Part shown: one piece after another, positions 2,594 to 40,582 of the stretch
Position numbering within the stretch: the first letter of the stretch is position 1
How the letters are laid out: each line of letters opens with the position of its first letter
Assembly (NCBI RefSeq): GCF_010550695.1
Contig: NZ_JAAGOB010000012.1
Location: 13,844-77,843 of the forward strand
Length of the DNA stretch: 64,000 nt
Direction: 5' to 3'
DNA from: Phytoactinopolyspora alkaliphila
GTDB lineage: Bacteria > Actinomycetota > Actinomycetes > Jiangellales > Jiangellaceae
Notes under the pieces: generated by a model
What the model was told of the DNA's origin: nothing
The model's input: the letters and a program-made list of their open reading frames with translations, nothing else
Database searches by the model: none
Position numbers and translations under genes: made by a program

Positions 2594-3482
2594 GCACGAG
2601 GTTCAAGCCGTCGACGACACCGCCGCGAAGGCGACCCTCCTCGGCGACGCCTGGCGAGACCTGCGCCACAACCCGCTGTTCCTGGCGAGTGGATTCGTCG
2701 TCGCCGTGATGGTCCTGATGGCGGCGTTCCCCAACGTGTTCTCCGGATGGTTCGGCAACGGTGACCCGCGCGTCTGCGACCTCGGCCGCAGCGGGGACGG
2801 GCCGGCGAGTGGGCATCCGTTCGGCTTCGACAAGCAGGGCTGCGACGTCTACGCGAACGTGATCCACGGTGCGCGAGCTTCGATCAGTGTGGGTGTGCTG
2901 GTGACGACCTTCTCACTCCTCCTCGCAATCACCCTGGGCAGCGTCGCCGGCTACCGGGGACGCTGGCTCGACGCACTGATCAGCAGGATGGCCGACGTGT
3001 TCTTCGGCTTCCCGTTCATCCTCGGTGCCCTGGTGGTGCTGAACAGCCTGGGTACGCGCAGCATCTGGACGGTTTCCGCGGTACTCGCCCTGTTCATGTG
3101 GCCGACGATGACCCGCCTGATGCGCTCGTCGGTGCTGTCCGTCAAACAGATGGACTACGTGCAGGCCGCCCGGGGCCTCGGTGCGGGAGGCTGGCGCTTG
3201 GTACGCCGCCACATCCTTCCCAACGCGGTGGCGCCGGTGATGGTGATGGCCACGATCACCATCGGGACGGCGATCGTGGCCGAAGCGGTTCTCACCTTCC
3301 TGGGAGTGGGACTCCAGGCGCCGGCGATCTCGTGGGGCCTGCAGCTGTCCAACGCGCAAACCGACTTCCAGATGTCGCCTCACCTGCTGATCTACCCGTC
3401 GATCTTCCTGAGCCTGACGGTGCTCAGCTTCATCGTGCTCGGTGACACGATCAGGGAGGCCTTCGACCCGCGGATGCGCTAG
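2586..3482 (+). CDS. ABC transporter permease, DppC/OppC-like
   Basis: Overlaps the previous gene by 8 nt, consistent with translational coupling. Hydrophobic, with a BPD_transp_1-like core. Confidence 0.85.
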   Translation: MSEHEVQAVDDTAAKATLLGDAWRDLRHNPLFLASGFVVAVMVLMAAFPNVFSGWFGNGDPRVCDLGRSGDGPASGHPFGFDKQGCDVYANVIHGARASISVGVLVTTFSLLLAITLGSVAGYRGRWLDALISRMADVFFGFPFILGALVVLNSLGTRSIWTVSAVLALFMWPTMTRLMRSSVLSVKQMDYVQAARGLGAGGWRLVRRHILPNAVAPVMVMATITIGTAIVAEAVLTFLGVGLQAPAISWGLQLSNAQTDFQMSPHLLIYPSIFLSLTVLSFIVLGDTIREAFDPRMR

Positions 3483-3646
3483 GCGCCTGCGCAGCGCACA
3501 TGGATCAGGTGACTCAACGGTCCATCTGCGAGGATTTTCGTCGTCTGATCCAGGGGCGAACGCGCGGTGGTGACGACGAGCACATCGAGTCCGCCAGCGT
3601 GGCAGCGGAGCCGGCTGATAGGCTCGCGGAGACCGGCGTCCTTTAA

Positions 3647-3668
3647 ATCCCGTCCAGTGAGGCGGGGA
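3647..3668 (+). promoter_or_regulatory. PyrR-binding-loop-like RNA hairpin overlapping the pyrR ribosome-binding site
   Basis: The sequence aaatCCCGuccagugaggCGGGgaagggggu has a CCCG/CGGG stem whose loop, UCCAGUGAGG, closely matches the PyrR box consensus (ARUCCNGNGAGG). The SD-like GGAAGGGGG starts at 3666, and the ATG is at 3686. Confidence 0.5.
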
Positions 3669-3685
3669 AGGGGGTCCCTTTCCGC

Positions 3686-4291
3686 ATGTCTCGTCACCTG
3701 TCCGGCTTCCGGACCGTCCTCAGCGAGGACGAGATCAACCGGGCGCTTGCCCGGATGGCCCACGAGGTCGTAGAGCGCAACAAGGGCGCTTCCGGCCTGG
3801 TAGTCCTCGGCATTCCCTCACGTGGGGTGCCACTGGCCCAGCGACTCACCGCTCGCATCTCCAGCGTCGAGGACATCGCCGTGCCGGTTGGCGCGCTCGA
3901 TGTCACGATGTACCGCGACGATCTGCGGTTGCGCCCGGCGCGTGCACTGGAGCCCACCGACATCCCCGACGGCGGCGTCGACGGCAAGACCGTGGTCCTG
4001 GTGGACGACGTTCTCTACTCAGGACGCACCATCCGAGCGGCGCTCACCGCACTCGACGACGTCGGCCGGCCGCGCGCTGTACGGCTCGCGGTCCTCGTGG
4101 ATCGCGGCCACCGCGAACTGCCCATCCGAGCCGACCACGTGGGCAAGAACCTCCCCACGTCGCTGCGCGAGAGCGTCCGCGTGCTGCTGAACGAGGTCGA
4201 CGGCCAGGACGCGGTGCTCGTCGGAGCCACGGCCGACGCACACCCGGCGCCAGAAGCACACCTGGCAGCCGGCGAAGAGGAGGCCCGATGA
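3686..4291 (+). CDS. pyrR: Bifunctional pyrimidine operon regulator / uracil phosphoribosyltransferase PyrR
   Basis: 201 aa. Contains the PRPP-binding motif [13 protein letters not shown]. Sits at the head of the pyr operon. Confidence 0.95.
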
Positions 4292-5241
4292 TCCGCCATC
4301 TGTTGTCCGCCGCCGACCTTTCCCACGAGGAAGCGACGCTGATCCTCGACACCGCGGACGAGATGGCGCGGCTCACGGAGGGCCGGGCGGTGAAGAAGCT
4401 GCCCACGTTGCGTGGGCGCACCGTGGTGAACCTGTTCTTCGAGGACTCGACCCGGACCCGGACCTCGTTCGAGCTGGCCGCGAAGCGGCTCTCAGCCGAC
4501 GTGATCAATTTCTCCGCGAAGGGTTCCAGCGTGTCCAAGGGCGAGAGCCTGAAGGACACCGCATTGACGCTCGCCGCCATGGGCGCGGACGGCGTCGTCG
4601 TCCGTCATTCTGCGAGCGGCGCCGCGTACCGCCTCGCGACGTCCGGGTGGATCAGCGCGAATGTGCTGAACGCCGGCGACGGCACCCACGAGCATCCGAC
4701 GCAGGCGCTGCTGGACGCGTTCACCTTGCGTCGGCATCTCGGAGACCTACGCGACCGCGACGTCGTGATCGTCGGCGACGTGCTCCATGGCAGGGTGGCA
4801 CGCAGTAACGTGCTCCTGCTCGCCACGCTGGGGGCACGGGTCACGCTGGTGGCCCCGCCGACCCTCCTGCCGCTGGGCGTGGAGAACTGGCCGTGCGAGG
4901 TCACCTATGACCTCGACGCGGCGCTGCCCGGTGCGGACGCGGTCATGATGTTGCGCGTCCAGCGGGAACGGATGAACGCGGCGTTCTTCCCGTCCGCCCG
5001 CGAGTACAGCAGGCGCTACGGGCTGGACGCGCGCCGCTTCTCGTCATTGCCGGAGGACGCGATCGTGCTGCATCCGGGGCCGATGAACCGCGGCATGGAG
5101 ATCAGCGCGGACGTCGCGGACAATGAGCGGTCCGTGATCGTCGAGCAGGTCACGAACGGTGTCTACGTCCGGATGGCGGTTCTGTACCTGATGCTCGCCG
5201 GATCCGGGACCGGGTCAGCCGGCGGCGAGGACGCCGCATGA
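4288..5241 (+). CDS. pyrB: Aspartate carbamoyltransferase catalytic subunit
   Basis: 317 aa with the ATCase/OTCase fold motifs STRTR and HPTQ. Its start overlaps the pyrR stop by 4 nt. Confidence 0.95.
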
Positions 5242-5284: not shown

Positions 5285-6595
5285 GTGAACGGCGAGAGCA
5301 TCCTGATCAGAGGGGCGCGGATCCTCGGCGGTCCCCAGGGCGACATGCTGCTACGAGACGGGGTGATCGCGGCCCTTGGTGGTGACGTTGACGGCACCGG
5401 AGCGCGAGCGATCGACGCGGACGGCCTTGTGGCCCTGCCGGGCCTAGTTGACTTGCACACTCACCTTCGCGAACCTGGGCGCGAAGACGCCGAGACGGTG
5501 GCCTCCGGAACCCGGGCCGCCGCGGCCGGTGGATTCACCGCCGTGCACGCGATGGCCAACACCGATCCGGTGGCAGACACCGCGGGCGTGGTAGAGCAGG
5601 TCTGGCGGCTGGGCCGCGAAGCCGGTCACGCGGACGTGCGTCCGGTGGGCGCGGTGACCGTCGGGCTGGCCGGGGAGCGGCTGGCCGAACTCGGCGCGAT
5701 GGCCGACTCCGCCGCCCGGGTGCGGGTCTTCTCCGACGACGGGATCTGCGTGTCCGACGCCGTGCTGATGCGCCGTGCGCTGGAGTACGTGAAAGCTTTC
5801 GACGGCGTGATAGCGCAGCATGCGCAAGAGCCCCGCCTCACCGAGGGCGCCCAGATGAACGAGAGCGAGCTCTCGGGCCGGCTCGGTCTGCGCGGCTGGC
5901 CCAGTGTGGCCGAGGAGGCGATCATCGCCCGCGACGTTCTCCTGGCCGCACACGTCGGTTCCCGGTTGCACATCTGCCACTTGTCCACCAGGGGCTCGGT
6001 GGAGATCGTGCGGCTGGCCAAGCAGCGCGGACTCCCCGTCACCGCCGAGGTGACTCCGCATCACCTGCTGCTCACCGAAGACCTGGTCTCCACCTACGAC
6101 GCCCGGTACAAAGTCAATCCGCCGTTGCGGAGCGCCGACGACGTGGCCGCGGTGCGTGAGGGGCTGGCCGACGGCACGATCGACATCGTAGCCACCGACC
6201 ACGCTCCGCATCCGGTGGAGGACAAGGAATGCGAGTGGGATGCCGCTGCCTTCGGCATGCTCGGGCTGGACACGGCGCTGTCCGTCGTCCAGCACACGAT
6301 GGTCGACACCGGCTTGCTCGACTGGTCCGGCGTCGCCGACCGGATGTCGTTCGCCCCGGCCCGGATCGGCCGCTGCGACAGCGACGACGCCGCCCAGGGA
6401 CGTCCACTCGCGGTCGGCGAGCCGGCCAACGTCGTCCTGATCGATCCGGCCGCCTCCCGCACGGTCGACGCGCGCACGTCGGCGTCGCTGTCGCGCAACA
6501 GCCCGTACGACGGCATGAAGCTGCCGGGTGGCGTCGTGGCGACGTTCTTGCGCGGCCGTCCGACCGTGGAGGACGGTGCGCTGACGTGGATCTGA
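5285..6595 (+). CDS. pyrC: Dihydroorotase
   Basis: 436 aa. Has the metal-binding DLHTHLREPG motif and the amidohydrolase fold. Confidence 0.93.
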   Translation: MNGESILIRGARILGGPQGDMLLRDGVIAALGGDVDGTGARAIDADGLVALPGLVDLHTHLREPGREDAETVASGTRAAAAGGFTAVHAMANTDPVADTAGVVEQVWRLGREAGHADVRPVGAVTVGLAGERLAELGAMADSAARVRVFSDDGICVSDAVLMRRALEYVKAFDGVIAQHAQEPRLTEGAQMNESELSGRLGLRGWPSVAEEAIIARDVLLAAHVGSRLHICHLSTRGSVEIVRLAKQRGLPVTAEVTPHHLLLTEDLVSTYDARYKVNPPLRSADDVAAVREGLADGTIDIVATDHAPHPVEDKECEWDAAAFGMLGLDTALSVVQHTMVDTGLLDWSGVADRMSFAPARIGRCDSDDAAQGRPLAVGEPANVVLIDPAASRTVDARTSASLSRNSPYDGMKLPGGVVATFLRGRPTVEDGALTWI

Positions 6596-7101
6596 GGACG
6601 GGAATCGCCGTCGCGCTACTGGGTATGCTGCTCGTTGCGTCGTACCTGATGATGTGGCGGGGCTGGCGGAGGCGCGCGTCCCGTGACGCGCGGCTGCCGG
6701 CGCCGCCGGAGACGTTGCCGGCCGCTCCCAGCCGGGTCGGGCCGATCACCGGCACCTATCTCGGCACCACGGTGGCGGGTGACTGGCTGGAGCACGTGGG
6801 CACCCAGGGCTTGGACCGCCGTAGCGCGGCCACGGTGACGGTCACGGACGCGGGCGTGGAGATCGGCCGGTCGCCGGAACCGCCGCTGGCCATACCCGCC
6901 GGCGCCATCCACGCGATCCGCCTGGACCGGGCCGCGGCGGGCAGAGCGGTACGCCGCCCGGAATACCTGATCATCACCTGGGCGCATGCGAACCGGTCAC
7001 TGGACACGGCACTGCGCCCACATCATCGTGACGATCTCGGGCGGCTCCTCGATGCCGTAGAGGCGCTCGTGGAGCGTGAGGTGACGTCGTGGACGGAATG
7101 A
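6586..7101 (+). CDS. Conserved membrane protein of the pyr operon (pyrC-carA intergenic gene, Rv1382-position homolog)
   Basis: GTG at 6586 lies in frame within the 6229..7101 ORF and overlaps the pyrC stop by about 10 nt. Its N-terminal TM helix ([18 protein letters not shown]) is in the same position as the small membrane protein between pyrC and carA in other actinobacteria. The start site is uncertain; an alternative ATG lies about 30 nt downstream. Confidence 0.55.
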
Positions 7102-7178
7102 ACGCTGTACCGACGCCGGCGGTCGAGGTATTTGTCGGTGCCTTTGCAATGCGCACACCGACGCACCGCCGCCTCGAT

Positions 7179-7326
7179 GTGCGCAGAGCAGCGGATTGCA
7201 TGGATGTGCGCAGAGCGGCGTGTTGCATGGATGTGCGCAGAGCGGCGTGTTGCGTGGATGTGCGCAGAGCGGCGTGTTGCGTGGATGTGCGCAGAGCGGC
7301 GTGTTGCGTGGATGTGCGCATTGCAA
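7179..7326. repeat. 27-bp tandem repeat, 5 full units plus a partial unit (unit GTGCGCAGAGCGGCGTGTTGCGTGGAT), in the carA leader
   Basis: Units are seen directly at 7179, 7206, 7233, 7260 and 7287. The first copy is degenerate and a truncated sixth copy begins at 7314. Each unit begins with the palindromic hexamer TGCGCA. The array is bracketed by inverted arms TTGCAATGCGCAC (7144-7156) and GTGCGCATTGCAA (7314-7326). Confidence 0.9.
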
Positions 7327-7348
7327 AGCGAGCTGGAGGAGAGTTTTG

Positions 7349-8493
7349 ATGACGACGCGCACACCAGCGCTACTTGTTCTGGAGGACGGACGTGTATTCC
7401 GCGGCGAGTCCTACGGCGCAGCGGGGGAGACGTTCGGCGAAGCTGTGTTCTCCACCGGCATGACCGGCTACCAGGAGACCCTGACCGATCCGTCGTACTA
7501 CCAGCAGGTGGTGGTGCAGACAGCGCCGCACATCGGCAACACCGGGGTGAATGACGACGATCCCGAGTCCAGGCAGATCTGGGTGGCGGGCTACGTGGTC
7601 CGCGACCCGGCCCGACGTGCGTCGTCGTGGCGTGCCACTCGCGGCCTCGAAGCGGAGCTCGCGGCACAGGGCGTGGTGGGCATCAGCGGGGTGGACACCC
7701 GGGCTCTCACCCGCCACCTGCGTGAACGTGGCGCCATGCGGGTCGGCATCTCCAGTGTCGAGGCCGACGCCGACGCTCTGCGAGAGCGAGTGCTCGCCAG
7801 TCCGCAGATGCTCGGCGCGGACCTGGCCGCCGCCGTCTCCACCACCGAGCCGTACGTGGTGCCGGCAGAGGGCGAGCGGCGGTTCACCGTCGCTGCACTT
7901 GACCTGGGCATCAAGACGATGACACCACGGCGGATGGCCGAGCGGGGCATCGAGGTCCACGTCCTGCCGGCGACGTCGACCGCCGACGACGTGCTCGCCG
8001 TGCGGCCGGACGGGCTGTTCCTCTCGAACGGTCCTGGAGACCCGTCCACAGCCGATGGCCCTCGGGACGTCCTGCGTGCGGCGCTTGAGCACGACCTGCC
8101 GTTCTTCGGCATCTGCTTCGGCAACCAGGTGTTCGGGCGGGCTCTTGGGTTCGGCACCTACAAGCTCGGCTACGGCCATCGCGGCATCAATCAGCCTGTT
8201 CAGGACCGCGGTACCGGGAAGGTGGAGGTCACCGCGCACAATCACGGCTTCGCGGTGGACGCGCCACTCGACCGCGCCACCGACACCCCGTACGGCCGGG
8301 CCGAAGTCAGCCATGTCTGCCTCAACGACGACGTCGTGGAGGGCCTTGCTCTGCGCGGCGCCGGCGGTGAGCTCAAGGCGTTCTCGGTGCAGTACCACCC
8401 CGAGGCCGCCGCAGGCCCGCACGACGCGGCGTATCTGTTCGACCGCTTCGTAGAACTGATGAGTGTGACCCAGCGGACGCAGGGGGATGGCTG

Positions 8494-8494
<1 letters not shown>
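7349..8494 (+). CDS. carA: Carbamoyl-phosphate synthase small (glutaminase) subunit
   Basis: ATG at 7349 preceded by GGAGGAGAG. 381 aa with a class I glutamine amidotransferase triad region. The upstream in-frame extension from 7196 runs through the tandem repeat and is rejected as the start. Confidence 0.93.
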
Positions 8495-11816
<3,322 letters not shown>

Positions 11817-11820
<4 letters not shown>

Positions 11821-12962
11821 CACCGTACGGTCTGCTGTTCGAACGCGTCCTGACCCGCCTGGACGCCGAACGCGCGCATCATCTCGCGGTCGGCCTGATG
11901 CGGGTGGCGGCGCGGCTCCCCGGTGCCCGGCGGGCCGGATGGCGACGGCTGGCGCCCGCCGATCCAGCCCTCACAGTCGAGGCGATGGGGCTGCGCTTCC
12001 CAGGCCCCCTGGGGCTCGCAGCGGGCTTCGACAAGAACGCGATCGCCATCGACGCCCTCGGCGCCCTCGGCTTTGGCTTCGTCGAAGTGGGAACTGTCAC
12101 CGGACGCGCGCAGCCCGGAAATCCCCGGCCCCGGCTGCACCGGCTGCTCGCCGACCGGGCAATCGTGAACCGGATGGGTTTCAACAACGACGGCGCTGCT
12201 GCCGTGGCCGCGAGGCTGGCCGCGCGGCGCCGTCGCCGGGGTTCCCTGCCGATCGTCGTCGGCGTGAACATCGGCAAGACCAAGGCCGTGCCCGACGCCC
12301 AGGCGATCTCCGACTACGAGGCGAGCACCCGGATGGTCGCGCCTTACGCGGATTACCTCGTGGTCAACGTCAGCTCCCCGAACACACCCGGCCTGCGTGA
12401 CCTGCAGGCGGTCAGCCAGCTCCGGCCGCTGCTGACCGCGGTTCGTGCGCAGGCCGACGCTGTCACGGACCGGCGTGTGCCGCTGGTGGTGAAGATCGCG
12501 CCGGATCTCAGCGACGACGACGTGCTCGCGGTCGCGGACCTCGCACTGGAGTTGCGACTGGACGGCATCATCGCCACCAACACCACCGTCTCCCGCGCGG
12601 GTCTGTCCTCGGCACCCGGCGACATCGACCGCGTAGGCGCGGGTGGACTGTCGGGGGCGCCCCTGGCGGCTCGCGCCCTCGAGGTGCTGAAGCTGCTGAG
12701 CAGCCGGCTCGCCGACATCGGCACCTCCGGTGACGACCAGACCCGCGGACCTGGTGACACGCCGGACGTCGCCCTGATCTCGGTGGGCGGGGTATCCGAC
12801 GCGCGGGACGTGTACGAGCGGTTGCAGGCCGGAGCCGACTTGGTCCAGGCGTATACCGCGTTCATCTACGGCGGTGCATCGTGGCCGTCGCGTGTGCATC
12901 GCGAACTCGCCGGTCTTCTCGCGCACGGCGTTACGTTGCGTCCTGCAGAGCGTGCTCCGTGA
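11817..12962 (+). CDS. pyrD: Dihydroorotate dehydrogenase (quinone), class 2
   Basis: 381 aa with the FMN-binding barrel motifs [17 protein letters not shown] and [15 protein letters not shown] overlap with the carB stop. Confidence 0.9.
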
Positions 12963-22714: not shown

Positions 22715-22785
22715 GAAAATGATCTTGGCCTTTCCGGTTCTTGTTCCACTGACGGTGAGAGTCCTGGAAAGGCCAAGATCATTTC
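22715..22785. terminator. Long near-perfect inverted repeat (21-bp stem, about 26-nt loop) 3' of the HTH gene; candidate intrinsic terminator or structured RNA element
   Basis: GAAAATGATCTTGGCCTTTCCGG (22715-22737) pairs with CCTGGAAAGGCCAAGATCATTTC (22763-22785) and is followed by TTCTTAAAGG. The region is AT-rich relative to the surrounding genome. Confidence 0.55.
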
Positions 22786-24920: not shown

Positions 24921-25676
24921 GTGGGCGGTATGCATCATCCGCGACGTCGGCCCGCCGCTCTGCCGGCAGCATTCTTCACGCTCGTCCTGCTCGTCGGGGG
25001 CTGTGGCGACGAGGAGCCTGCCGGCCCCGGTGTGGGCGAAGGTAGCGAGACCTCTGCCGGCGGAGCGCCGCAGTCCCCGGACACCGGTGCTCCCGGCTCC
25101 GAGACCGCCCAAGGCGACGACGGTGGGGGAGACGAGAGCGCCGAAGGTGGCACGGACGACGAGACCTCGGACGACGAGACCTCGGACGACGGCCGCGGCG
25201 ACGAGAGTGGTCAGGACGGCGAGGAGTCCGGCGAGGCTGGTGCGGCAGCCGGCGTGACACCGAGCCCGGGCGTAGTCGGCGAGGTGCCGGCCAGGTGCCC
25301 CGAGGAAGTGGTCGCGGTGGGAGAGCGCATCACCGCGGACTACGAGCACGTCGAGATGCCGCCCGGGGACCAGCTTGCGATTCTCACCTGCGACTGGCGG
25401 GACTCGGGCAACACCATCGCCAGTGTCGAAGTGAGCTTCTCGCAGCGGATCTACGGCACCGACCTGGCCGATGTGGAAGGTGCGGAACCGGTGACGATCG
25501 CCGGCGTGGACGGCTACGTCCTGGACTCGGGCGAGCGCAAGGTCACCGCCACCATGTTCCAGTTCCACGCTGAGGGCCTGTACATCACAGGTGGATCGAT
25601 TGAGGTCGCCGACGTCGAGCAGGGTGACGTGCTGGCGCTGGCCGAAGCGGCCATCGAGTTCGTCACGTCACGGTGA
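24921..25676 (+). CDS. Putative lipoprotein with an acidic low-complexity linker
   Basis: Signal peptide with a lipobox-like LLVGGC, then a long D/E/G/S-rich region, then a roughly 130-aa C-terminal domain. No recognisable catalytic motif. Confidence 0.55.
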   Translation: MGGMHHPRRRPAALPAAFFTLVLLVGGCGDEEPAGPGVGEGSETSAGGAPQSPDTGAPGSETAQGDDGGGDESAEGGTDDETSDDETSDDGRGDESGQDGEESGEAGAAAGVTPSPGVVGEVPARCPEEVVAVGERITADYEHVEMPPGDQLAILTCDWRDSGNTIASVEVSFSQRIYGTDLADVEGAEPVTIAGVDGYVLDSGERKVTATMFQFHAEGLYITGGSIEVADVEQGDVLALAEAAIEFVTSR

Positions 25677-25701
25677 ACGCGACCGTCGTCGGCCCTCGGA
25701 G

Positions 25702-25752
25702 GCCACAGGCCCTTGCAGGCCACAGGTCCTTGCAGGCCACAGGTCCTTGCAG
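25702..25752. repeat. 17-bp tandem repeat x3 (GCCACAGGYCCTTGCAG) between convergent genes
   Basis: Three contiguous copies are seen at 25702-25718, 25719-25735 and 25736-25752. Immediately downstream is a GC hairpin CCCGGCAGGCTGCCGGG (25765-25781). Confidence 0.85.
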
Positions 25753-25801
25753 GCCTCCGTGCCCCCCGGCAGGCTGCCGGGCCGCCGGCACACCGGCCGC
25801 A

Positions 25802-40349: not shown

Positions 40350-40566
40350 GGGAGGGCTGGCGGGTAGGTTCTGCCGGCACTTTAAGAGCTCGTCGGACCC
40401 GCGAAGCACATCGCACGCCCACGTCCGTGGGCCCAAGTACGTCGCCCGACGGCGGCAGAGGCAGAGAAGGGGTCGGGGAAGGTTCTGCGGGCACGCTAAG
40501 AGCACGCTGTGGGCATGCTTCACCGCCCACTGCGTGCGACGCCCGAAGAACCCTCCCCGACCCCTT
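40350..40566. repeat. Two related, roughly 100-nt imperfect palindromic elements (A and B) in the metF/crtI-like convergent intergenic region
   Basis: Both contain GGTTCTGCNGGCAC..TAAGAGC (40367-40389 and 40481-40503). Element B is closed by a 17-bp outer stem GGGGTCGGGGAAGGTTC (40469-40485) pairing with GAACCCTCCCCGACCCC (40547-40563), and has an inner stem CACGCTGTGGGC/GCCCACTGCGTG. Element A contains the hairpin GCCCACGTCCGTGGGC (40417-40432). Confidence 0.6.
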
Positions 40567-40582
40567 CACAACGAAGCGACCC

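Follow-up and report, generated by a model that had tools for sequence, protein, structure and literature searches.

A 27-bp tandem array inside a putative palindromic intergenic repeat of the Phytoactinopolyspora alkaliphila pyr operon

The array and its setting in the pyr operon

The DNA considered here is a 64-kb stretch (hereafter the window) from Phytoactinopolyspora alkaliphila (Jiangellaceae), the top CarA match being 100% identical over 381 aa. Within it a pyr operon runs in the order pyrR-pyrB-pyrC-bPH_11-[247-nt spacer]-carA-carB-pyrD. It begins with pyrR (3686-4291, + strand, Pfam Pribosyltran match), pyrB (4288-5241) and pyrC (5285-6595), continues with a bPH_11 (bacterial PH-like) gene encoding an N-terminal hydrophobic segment (6586-7101, + strand; Pfam PF25362, 3e-29), and closes with carA (7349-8494, + strand, 381 aa; Pfam CPSase_sm_chain and GATase, with a corresponding NCBI protein), carB (8494-11820) and pyrD (11817-12962). 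The bPH_11 gene is the cistron immediately upstream of the spacer and ends in the stop codon TGA at 7099-7101 (+ strand), 247 nt before the carA ATG; its orthologues sit before carA in relatives L081-L085 and L105 also. A preliminary description of this DNA gave the length of the gap correctly, although the ATG lies at 7349 and not at 7350, and regarded the region as the leader of carA. Since the gene order from pyrR to pyrD runs through it, the region is an intercistronic spacer within the pyr operon, with bPH_11 as the upstream gene, and not a carA leader.

At the 5' end of the operon, upstream of pyrR, a PyrR-binding hairpin (CCUUUAAAUCCCGUCCAGUGAGGCGGGGAAGG; 3640-3671, + strand) overlaps the pyrR ribosome-binding site. 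Its RF00515 score (30.5 bits, E 0.096) is below the gathering score, despite which the loop fits the conserved hairpin UCCAGUGAGGC, and the arrangement resembles translational repression of the mycobacterial type. In the spacer region (7050-7420) the same model found no match, even at E<=10, and the array contains no hairpin with the conserved UCCAGAGAGGC loop such as a PyrR binding site would possess. A PyrR site within the units had been suggested by the presence in each of GCAGAGCGGC, which is like CCAGAGAGGC, but was ruled out by the Rfam search, in which the spacer matched no family and yielded only chance microRNA-like hairpins. A consensus scan of 6500-7800 on both strands revealed no promoter-like or terminator-like site. 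No TA dinucleotide in the spacer would suit a -10 element, and the GC-rich stem is not followed by the U-tract of an intrinsic terminator or attenuator, the nearest U4 run being 15 nt past it. Promoter and terminator readings of the spacer were dropped in view of the empty consensus scan and the lack of a suitable TA dinucleotide.

Most of the spacer is taken up by a tandem array. Tandem Repeats Finder places this at 7176-7320 with a period of 27, 5.4 copies (as assembled in one draft assembly), 96% matches and a score of 255, making it by far the strongest tandem array in the 64-kb window. Repeat finding, inverted-repeat detection and alignment together resolve it into five 27-bp units and a 7-nt stub (7179-7320, + strand), as the preliminary description had proposed. 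On the + strand, unit 1 (7179-7205) differs from the consensus GTGCGCAGAGCGGCGTGTTGCGTGGAT at four positions and unit 2 (7206-7232) at one, while units 3, 4 and 5 (7233-7259, 7260-7286 and 7287-7313) are mutually identical; the stub GTGCGCA occupies 7314-7320. Four unit matches were observed, against none in shuffled sequence. Each unit opens with GTGCGCA, so that the palindrome TGCGCA, noted previously as the start of every unit, is confirmed.

The array is enclosed by inverted arms. The 13-nt arms reported earlier, TTGCAATGCGCAC (7144-7156) and GTGCGCATTGCAA (7314-7326), are exact, but they are only part of longer arms of 24-26 nt that extend over 7142-7167 and 7303-7328. The inverted repeat around the array pairs 7142-7165 with 7305-7328 (24 nt, 92% complementary, 139 nt apart). 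The left terminal arm, CTTTGCAATGCGCACACCGACGCACC (7142-7167, + strand), was found as an inverted repeat, by an arm scan and in an alignment of seven arms; the right terminal arm, GTTGCGTGGATGTGCGCATTGCAAAG (7303-7328, + strand), was found by the first two of these and overlaps the last unit. Between the left arm and unit 1 is the 5' part of the loop (7168-7178, + strand), which is unrepeated and, by alignment, diverged from the relative L081 described below. The unit itself is composed of the 3' part of the loop and the inner 16 nt of the right arm. Because it includes those 16 nt every unit is complementary to the left arm, and each is able to pair with that single arm (inverted repeats I3-I6).

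Other repeats are present elsewhere in the window. An intergenic 17 bp x 3.8 tandem repeat (GGCCACAGGTCCTTGCA) lies at 25691-25755, 14 nt after a TGA at 25675-25677. A hairpin at 40466-40567 has 27-nt arms that are 93% complementary (GAAGGGGTCGGGGAAGGTTCTGCGGGC / GCCCGAAGAACCCTCCCCGACCCCTTC) around a 48-nt loop; it has no Rfam match and its sequence is unrelated to that of the element next to carA. Finally, a perfect 19-nt inverted repeat (AAATGATCTTGGCCTTTCC), AT-richer than the genome and with a 30-nt loop, is found in noncoding DNA at 22717-22784.

Origin of the array and distribution of its arms

The preliminary description had called for the copy number to be compared among relatives, and the comparison proved informative in the case of L081, a JGI metagenome contig whose CarA is 93% identical, and whose operon is around 85% nucleotide-identical, to that of the window. 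At the orthologous site L081 has a 148-nt spacer containing a single-copy form of the element, consisting of left arm, 27-nt loop and right arm. Alignment of the two requires a single clean gap of 108 nt, equal to four units, and the L081 element measures about 80 nt, that of the window 187 nt. On the strength of these alignments the array appears to be a secondary amplification inside a single-copy hairpin element, a point missed earlier. With one copy in L081 against 5.4 in the window, a comparison between species, the copy number is evolutionarily labile.

The single-copy form also offers a plausible route to the array. In L081, GCGCA pentamers are located in the loop (2575-2579) and in the right arm (2602-2606), exactly 27 nt apart, and such a pair would be the expected substrate for slippage duplication of the segment between. 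Units 3-5 of the window are nearest to the L081 unit, whereas units 1 and 2 have a derived G>A change in common, so that more than one round of duplication must be envisaged, and the two 5' units are drifting. We therefore picture an original element of about 80 nt, in which two arms of about 26 nt (consensus CTTTGCAATGCGCACAYCSACGCAAC) were inverted around a short loop to give a long imperfect hairpin, and which would have entered the bPH_11/carA junction in an ancestor that P. alkaliphila recently shared with one sister lineage. Slipped-strand mispairing between the two GCGCA pentamers could then have doubled the 27-nt segment, with later rounds of slippage raising the array to 5.4 copies. 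We hold this account of the anatomy and origin of the array with high confidence.

The polarity of the change, insertion and not loss, comes from the same junction in other relatives. A survey was made of the 80 CarA-matched genome loci listed (relatives at <=79% identity among these matches). P. mesophila (L082) has a bPH_11-carA spacer of 35 nt, P. limicola (L083) one of 25 nt and L084 one of about 35 nt, while in Haloactinopolyspora alba (L105) the two genes meet in a 4-nt ATGA overlap; the element is absent from all four of these Jiangellaceae junctions. It is absent too from 47 further actinobacterial loci, whose junctions are estimated at -10 to +49 nt, with about 14 nt the commonest length. 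In P. mesophila the left end (GAATGA.GCTGTACCG) and the right end (GGAG..TTTGATGA) of the window spacer are still recognisable. Judged from these sequences, the element is an insertion into a junction that normally overlaps or spans at most about 50 nt.

A further junction, that of the sister species P. halotolerans (L085), has an unrelated bPH_11-carA spacer of 103 nt (2898-3000) with a GC palindrome of its own. In the same contig the carA-carB spacer (4153-4263) is 112 nt long and contains a 24-bp x 2.5 tandem repeat, which echoes the 3' end of carA (ELMER...) and closes in a TAATG overlap with carB. The tight junctions of the pyr operon thus seem prone to acquire repeats of a length that keeps the frame.

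These junctions bear on the proposal, made in the preliminary description, of carAB control by PyrR, ArgR or a nucleoid protein, with the array serving as a multi-site DNA operator or as an RNA attenuator. The six TGCGCA palindromes at 27-bp spacing and the TTGCAA palindromes in the arms lend the idea some appeal, as does the fact that carAB is controlled by both arginine and pyrimidines in many bacteria. Nevertheless, the site is missing from sister species and the nearest relative has a single unit, while at a spacing of 27 bp neighbouring sites would not lie on the same side of the helix. The spacer offers no promoter on which an operator might act and no terminator for an attenuator, and the operon already has a good PyrR hairpin at 3640-3671, in contrast to the empty RF00515 search of 7050-7420. 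In relatives the two genes overlap or stand very close together, so that this position holds no ancestral operator or attenuator. Taking the sequence features together, we consider control of carAB by such a site highly improbable.

The arms themselves recur elsewhere. A scan of metagenomes with a 20-nt arm pattern returned 15 loci, among which one, L097, is a real match; the other 14 are lone matches of 20-23 nt that have no partner arm and look like chance. L097 coincides in sequence with part of L101 and of L102 and derives from an uncultured member of the Jiangellaceae, the best named homologues of its MarR protein being from Jiangellaceae MAGs (75-78%). The arms are here situated between genes for a 5'-3' exonuclease and for MarR, some 230 nt upstream of the MarR gene, and comprise CTTTGCAATGCGCACACCCACGCAAC, a direct second copy of that arm 58 nt downstream, and an inverted partner, GTTGCGTTGGAGTGCGCATTGCAAAG. 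They differ by 1-3 bases of 26, whereas the 126-nt interior is unrelated to the carA element. L104, from a relative whose MarR is 92% identical, has no copy of the element in its 20 kb. When seven arms are aligned, a conserved block of about 27 nt emerges, with a sharp end at CTTTGCAA and unrelated flanks.

Near-identical arms at two unrelated loci in two Jiangellaceae genomes, with presence and absence among relatives at both, suggest a dispersed family of BOX- or MITE-like type. The family is known from these two loci only, in different genomes; no further arm copies occur in the 64 kb of the window, nor in some 92 kb of DNA from other Jiangellaceae (about 156 kb in total). A 531-aa query made by concatenating six-frame peptides of the arms found no match at E<=10, a scan of viral contigs for the element found nothing, and a literature search for the arm sequence and the species name was equally negative. 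No target-site duplication is discernible in the arm flanks of the window, L081 or L101 (L104 being rearranged at the L101 locus), nor was an insertion sequence found whose ends match; for these two reasons it is by inference that we propose the family to have been mobile.

Two directly oriented copies of the left arm, each with 8 nt of its flank, lie 58 nt apart in L101 (7762-7853). A partial tandem duplication involving an arm has therefore arisen independently at both known loci.

The carA start and the frame across the spacer

A repeat with a period of 27 nt keeps all frames open, as was recognised from the start, and an in-frame ORF running from 7196 to 8494 is indeed present, in which (L/R)HGCAQSGVL is read five times. 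The true start of carA is however the ATG at 7349. The NCBI CarA protein (P0001) has 381 aa and is 100% identical, over its full length, to the product from this codon, and all of the CarA homologues inspected (60/60) start within a few residues of the equivalent position. A Shine-Dalgarno sequence, GGAGGAG, read directly from the DNA at 7335-7341 (+ strand) and identical in L081, is separated by 6 nt from the hairpin base and by 7 nt from the ATG that follows. The segment 7196-7348 (+ strand), for which no homologue shows an equivalent, is a spurious N-terminal extension of carA made by the array, and the ORF from 7196 is a repeat artefact. The preliminary description rightly called this an annotation trap, and it is flagged here for the carA start.

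A second frame is free of stops across the whole spacer (7098-7349, + strand). It leads from an ATG at 7098, with an additional in-frame GTG at 7089, to a TGA at 7347-7349, and it shares an ATGA overlap (7098-7101) with the upstream stop and a TGATG overlap (7347-7351) with the carA ATG. Its counterpart in L081 is a 50-aa ORF with GTGA and TGATG overlaps. A Pfam search of the peptide from this frame gave no family. A phmmer search with the 86-aa ORF (7089-7349) against 1.84 billion representatives gave only unrelated translated minisatellites with a 9-residue periodicity. The 27-nt unit lacks stops in all six frames, with a GC3 of 6/9 in each, and for this reason an open frame is weak evidence of coding; the frame is probably not a real protein gene. 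That the repeats encode protein at all, whether as a CarA extension from 7196 or as an 86-aa repeat protein, strikes us as scarcely credible: both ORFs are open, but the homologue N-termini, the 381-aa NCBI protein, the Shine-Dalgarno sequence in front of 7349, the empty Pfam search and the HMMER matches to other translated minisatellites all speak against it.

A different matter is whether the frame might be translated for the sake of what lies downstream. Ribosomes could restart at the ATGA, melt the hairpin and terminate on the carA AUG, making of the frame a bridge like that proposed for mycobacterial MIRUs; more speculatively still, the Arg-Arg pairs (CGC AGA) in each unit could render such coupling sensitive to arginine. 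Overlaps of start and stop are found at both ends of the frame in both species, even though the upstream stop has moved, and the 27-nt period preserves the frame. Moreover, the ancestral junction was a 4-nt overlap or very short, so that translational coupling would be the ancestral state. For MIRUs, insertion at start codons has been described, together with an internal ORF that is coupled (PMC12548453). Against this, a unit that is open in six frames with the same GC3 in each bears no coding signature, and the TGA ahead of the carA ATG predates the element, occurring also in relatives that are without it. Conservation of the peptide between the window and L081 is poor, no homologues of it were found, and carA has a strong Shine-Dalgarno sequence of its own. 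The frame is no more than suggestive as a coupling device, and its translation as a bridge is, in our judgement, distinctly doubtful. The 9-codon period may nonetheless help to explain how an insertion probably transcribed within the operon mRNA came to be tolerated, in that it would keep a stop-free frame from the ATGA overlap to the TGATG overlap.

Codons 3-8 of carA (GCGCACACCAGCGC, 7357-7370) resemble the inner left arm (GCGCACACCGACGC, 7151-7164), as a result of which the right arm and each of the units show about 76% complementarity to the 5' coding end of carA. Since MTTRTPAL is also encoded in H. alba, which has no element, the likeness is probably due to chance.

Folding, arm conservation and comparison with known repeats

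The single-copy hairpin of L081 is predicted to fold at -49 kcal/mol (z -5.0) on the + strand and -54.5 kcal/mol (z -7.2) on the - strand, and the L097 region likewise folds as one long hairpin (z -3.7). For the window element the corresponding figure is -102 kcal/mol (z -2.5). In the predicted folds the outer arms close the whole array into one loop, in agreement with the original suggestion. In partition-function calculations on constructs with 0-9 units, the Shine-Dalgarno sequence had an unpaired probability of 0.59 and the AUG one of 0.74, the same throughout, and such models would make the array an insulated domain at equilibrium; accessibility that is independent of the number of units is a further count against an operator or attenuator role. 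The pairing of the outer arms, which would confine the array to a domain ending 6 nt before the Shine-Dalgarno sequence, may be another reason for which the insertion was tolerated.

Quite unlike their surroundings, the arms have hardly changed. The left arm of the window matches that of L081 at 24 of 26 bases and the right arm at 26 of 26 (50/52), to be compared with two neutral proxies from the same pair of sequences: 66.8% for third codon positions of carA and 31 of 40 for the left flank of the spacer. The 20 nt leading into the carA ATG are identical throughout (20/20). The longest identical run in the 6.8-kb alignment, 71 nt (7301-7371; the next longest being 44 nt), spans the right arm, the Shine-Dalgarno sequence and the first 23 nt of carA. 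A purely selfish element or a neutral relic would be expected to have decayed, so that some function in cis, or else homogenisation, is likely. Purifying selection, homogenisation against other copies and recent exchange of a tract are all possible causes of the conservation, and a cis function of the arms is possible.

It may accordingly be asked whether the hairpin is a selected cis-acting RNA of the pyr mRNA, serving as a processing site (RNase III-type), as a stabiliser that would uncouple the levels of pyrR-pyrB-pyrC-bPH_11 from those of carAB-pyrD, or as an organiser of the carA initiation region, with the units either a by-product or a tuning device in which each is an alternative partner for the left arm. 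The near-identity of the arms, the 71-nt run and the divergence of the left flank and of the 5' part of the loop are as expected if it is the stem that matters; the duplex of 24-28 bp ends 6 nt from the Shine-Dalgarno sequence, and each unit can pair with the left arm. On the other hand, other family members do without a spacer at this junction, and it is the arm sequence, beyond mere pairing, that recurs at the MarR locus. The mismatches are C.A on the + strand, being G.U on the other, and the better fold is that of the - strand, unlike what selection on a sense RNA should produce. The number of units makes no difference to how accessible the ribosome-binding site is predicted to be, and sequence diversity is too low for a covariation test. 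We regard selection for such an RNA as unlikely on present evidence.

A bolder version would see here a previously undescribed Jiangellaceae hairpin family with a host function, bound by protein or cleaved by an RNase, in which the number of decoy arms and the Arg-Arg-rich frame tune carAB-pyrD relative to pyrBC. Were this so, the spacer would be a copy-number-variable expression rheostat at the branch point of arginine and pyrimidine synthesis. The unusual degree to which the arms are conserved is compatible with such a role, but we think it quite improbable.

The reading we prefer remains an amplified palindromic intergenic repeat, mobile in origin and tolerated in the operon through its insulation or its frame; for the explanation in full, mobility and tolerance included, we would put the probability a little above even, at roughly 0.55. 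The element is not a demonstrated regulator of carA. Its interest lies rather in the before-and-after pair formed by the single hairpin of L081 and the 5.4-copy array of the window, which illustrates how a minisatellite can arise within a bacterial hairpin element. The array is also a candidate typing marker for Phytoactinopolyspora. Should the strongly conserved arms prove functional, the element would represent a case of a repeat co-opted for controlling a core biosynthetic operon.

Of known repeats, the BOX elements of Streptococcus pneumoniae bear the closest comparison in architecture. There the boxA and boxC ends pair around a variable array of boxB modules, which changes by slippage and sometimes produces ORFs (PMC3049150); BOX elements of S. 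pneumoniae and S. suis are intergenic and can affect neighbouring genes (PMC3049150, PMC3184786). The carA element similarly has paired terminal modules around variable tandem internal modules, the same arms enclosing one unit in L081 and 5.4 in the window, and in its intergenic location, the structural insulation of its array from the stem and the appearance of ORFs in large arrays the likeness continues. It is a resemblance of architecture only, sequence and phylum being unrelated; with a high-GC actinobacterium as host, homology of sequence is not to be expected. The modules differ in size (a 27-nt unit and 26-nt arms here, as opposed to about 45 nt for boxB and about 50-59 nt for the BOX arms), and BOX is found at more than 100 sites per genome whereas the arms of the carA element are known at two loci. 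Most distinctively, the carA-element unit includes 16 nt of the right arm, making each copy a decoy partner for the left arm. The comparison extends a BOX-like architecture to a little-studied actinobacterial family.

Mycobacterial MIRU-VNTRs share other characteristics with the array: both comprise units within operons, between co-directional genes of an actinobacterium, with a period divisible by three and a variable copy number, in the present case 1 against 5.4 between species that are about 85% nucleotide-identical. MIRU units are 46-101 bp in length and are not known to be bracketed by inverted arms or to occur outside Mycobacterium. The carA-element unit has 27 bp and derives from a hairpin element. 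The internal ORF of a MIRU overlaps the flanking stop and start codons, which is thought to preserve translational coupling (PMC12548453). Overlaps of this kind are present here (ATGA at 7098-7101, TGATG at 7347-7351), though with all frames open they carry little significance.

MITEs and REPINs are short, intergenic and capable of forming a hairpin from terminal inverted repeats (PMC3184786). The carA element is also short and noncoding, forms a long hairpin and is present or absent at orthologous sites among relatives. It possesses terminal inverted repeats (24-26 nt, 92% complementary) around a short noncoding core of less than about 400 bp, but the flanking target-site duplication of a MITE has no counterpart. 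Unlike REPs, its arms are not good palindromes, containing by eye a 4-bp self-complementary stem (TGCG...CGCA). Readings as an integron attC site, a CRISPR or a REP were dropped, the R-box consensus being absent, there being no spacers and the arms not being palindromic.

To judge from its sequence, the carA element falls outside the BOX, MIRU and MITE/REPIN families, and the inclusion of part of an arm in the amplified module sets it apart from each of them. As to kind, we rate it among those already known, the small palindromic intergenic repeats with an internal VNTR.
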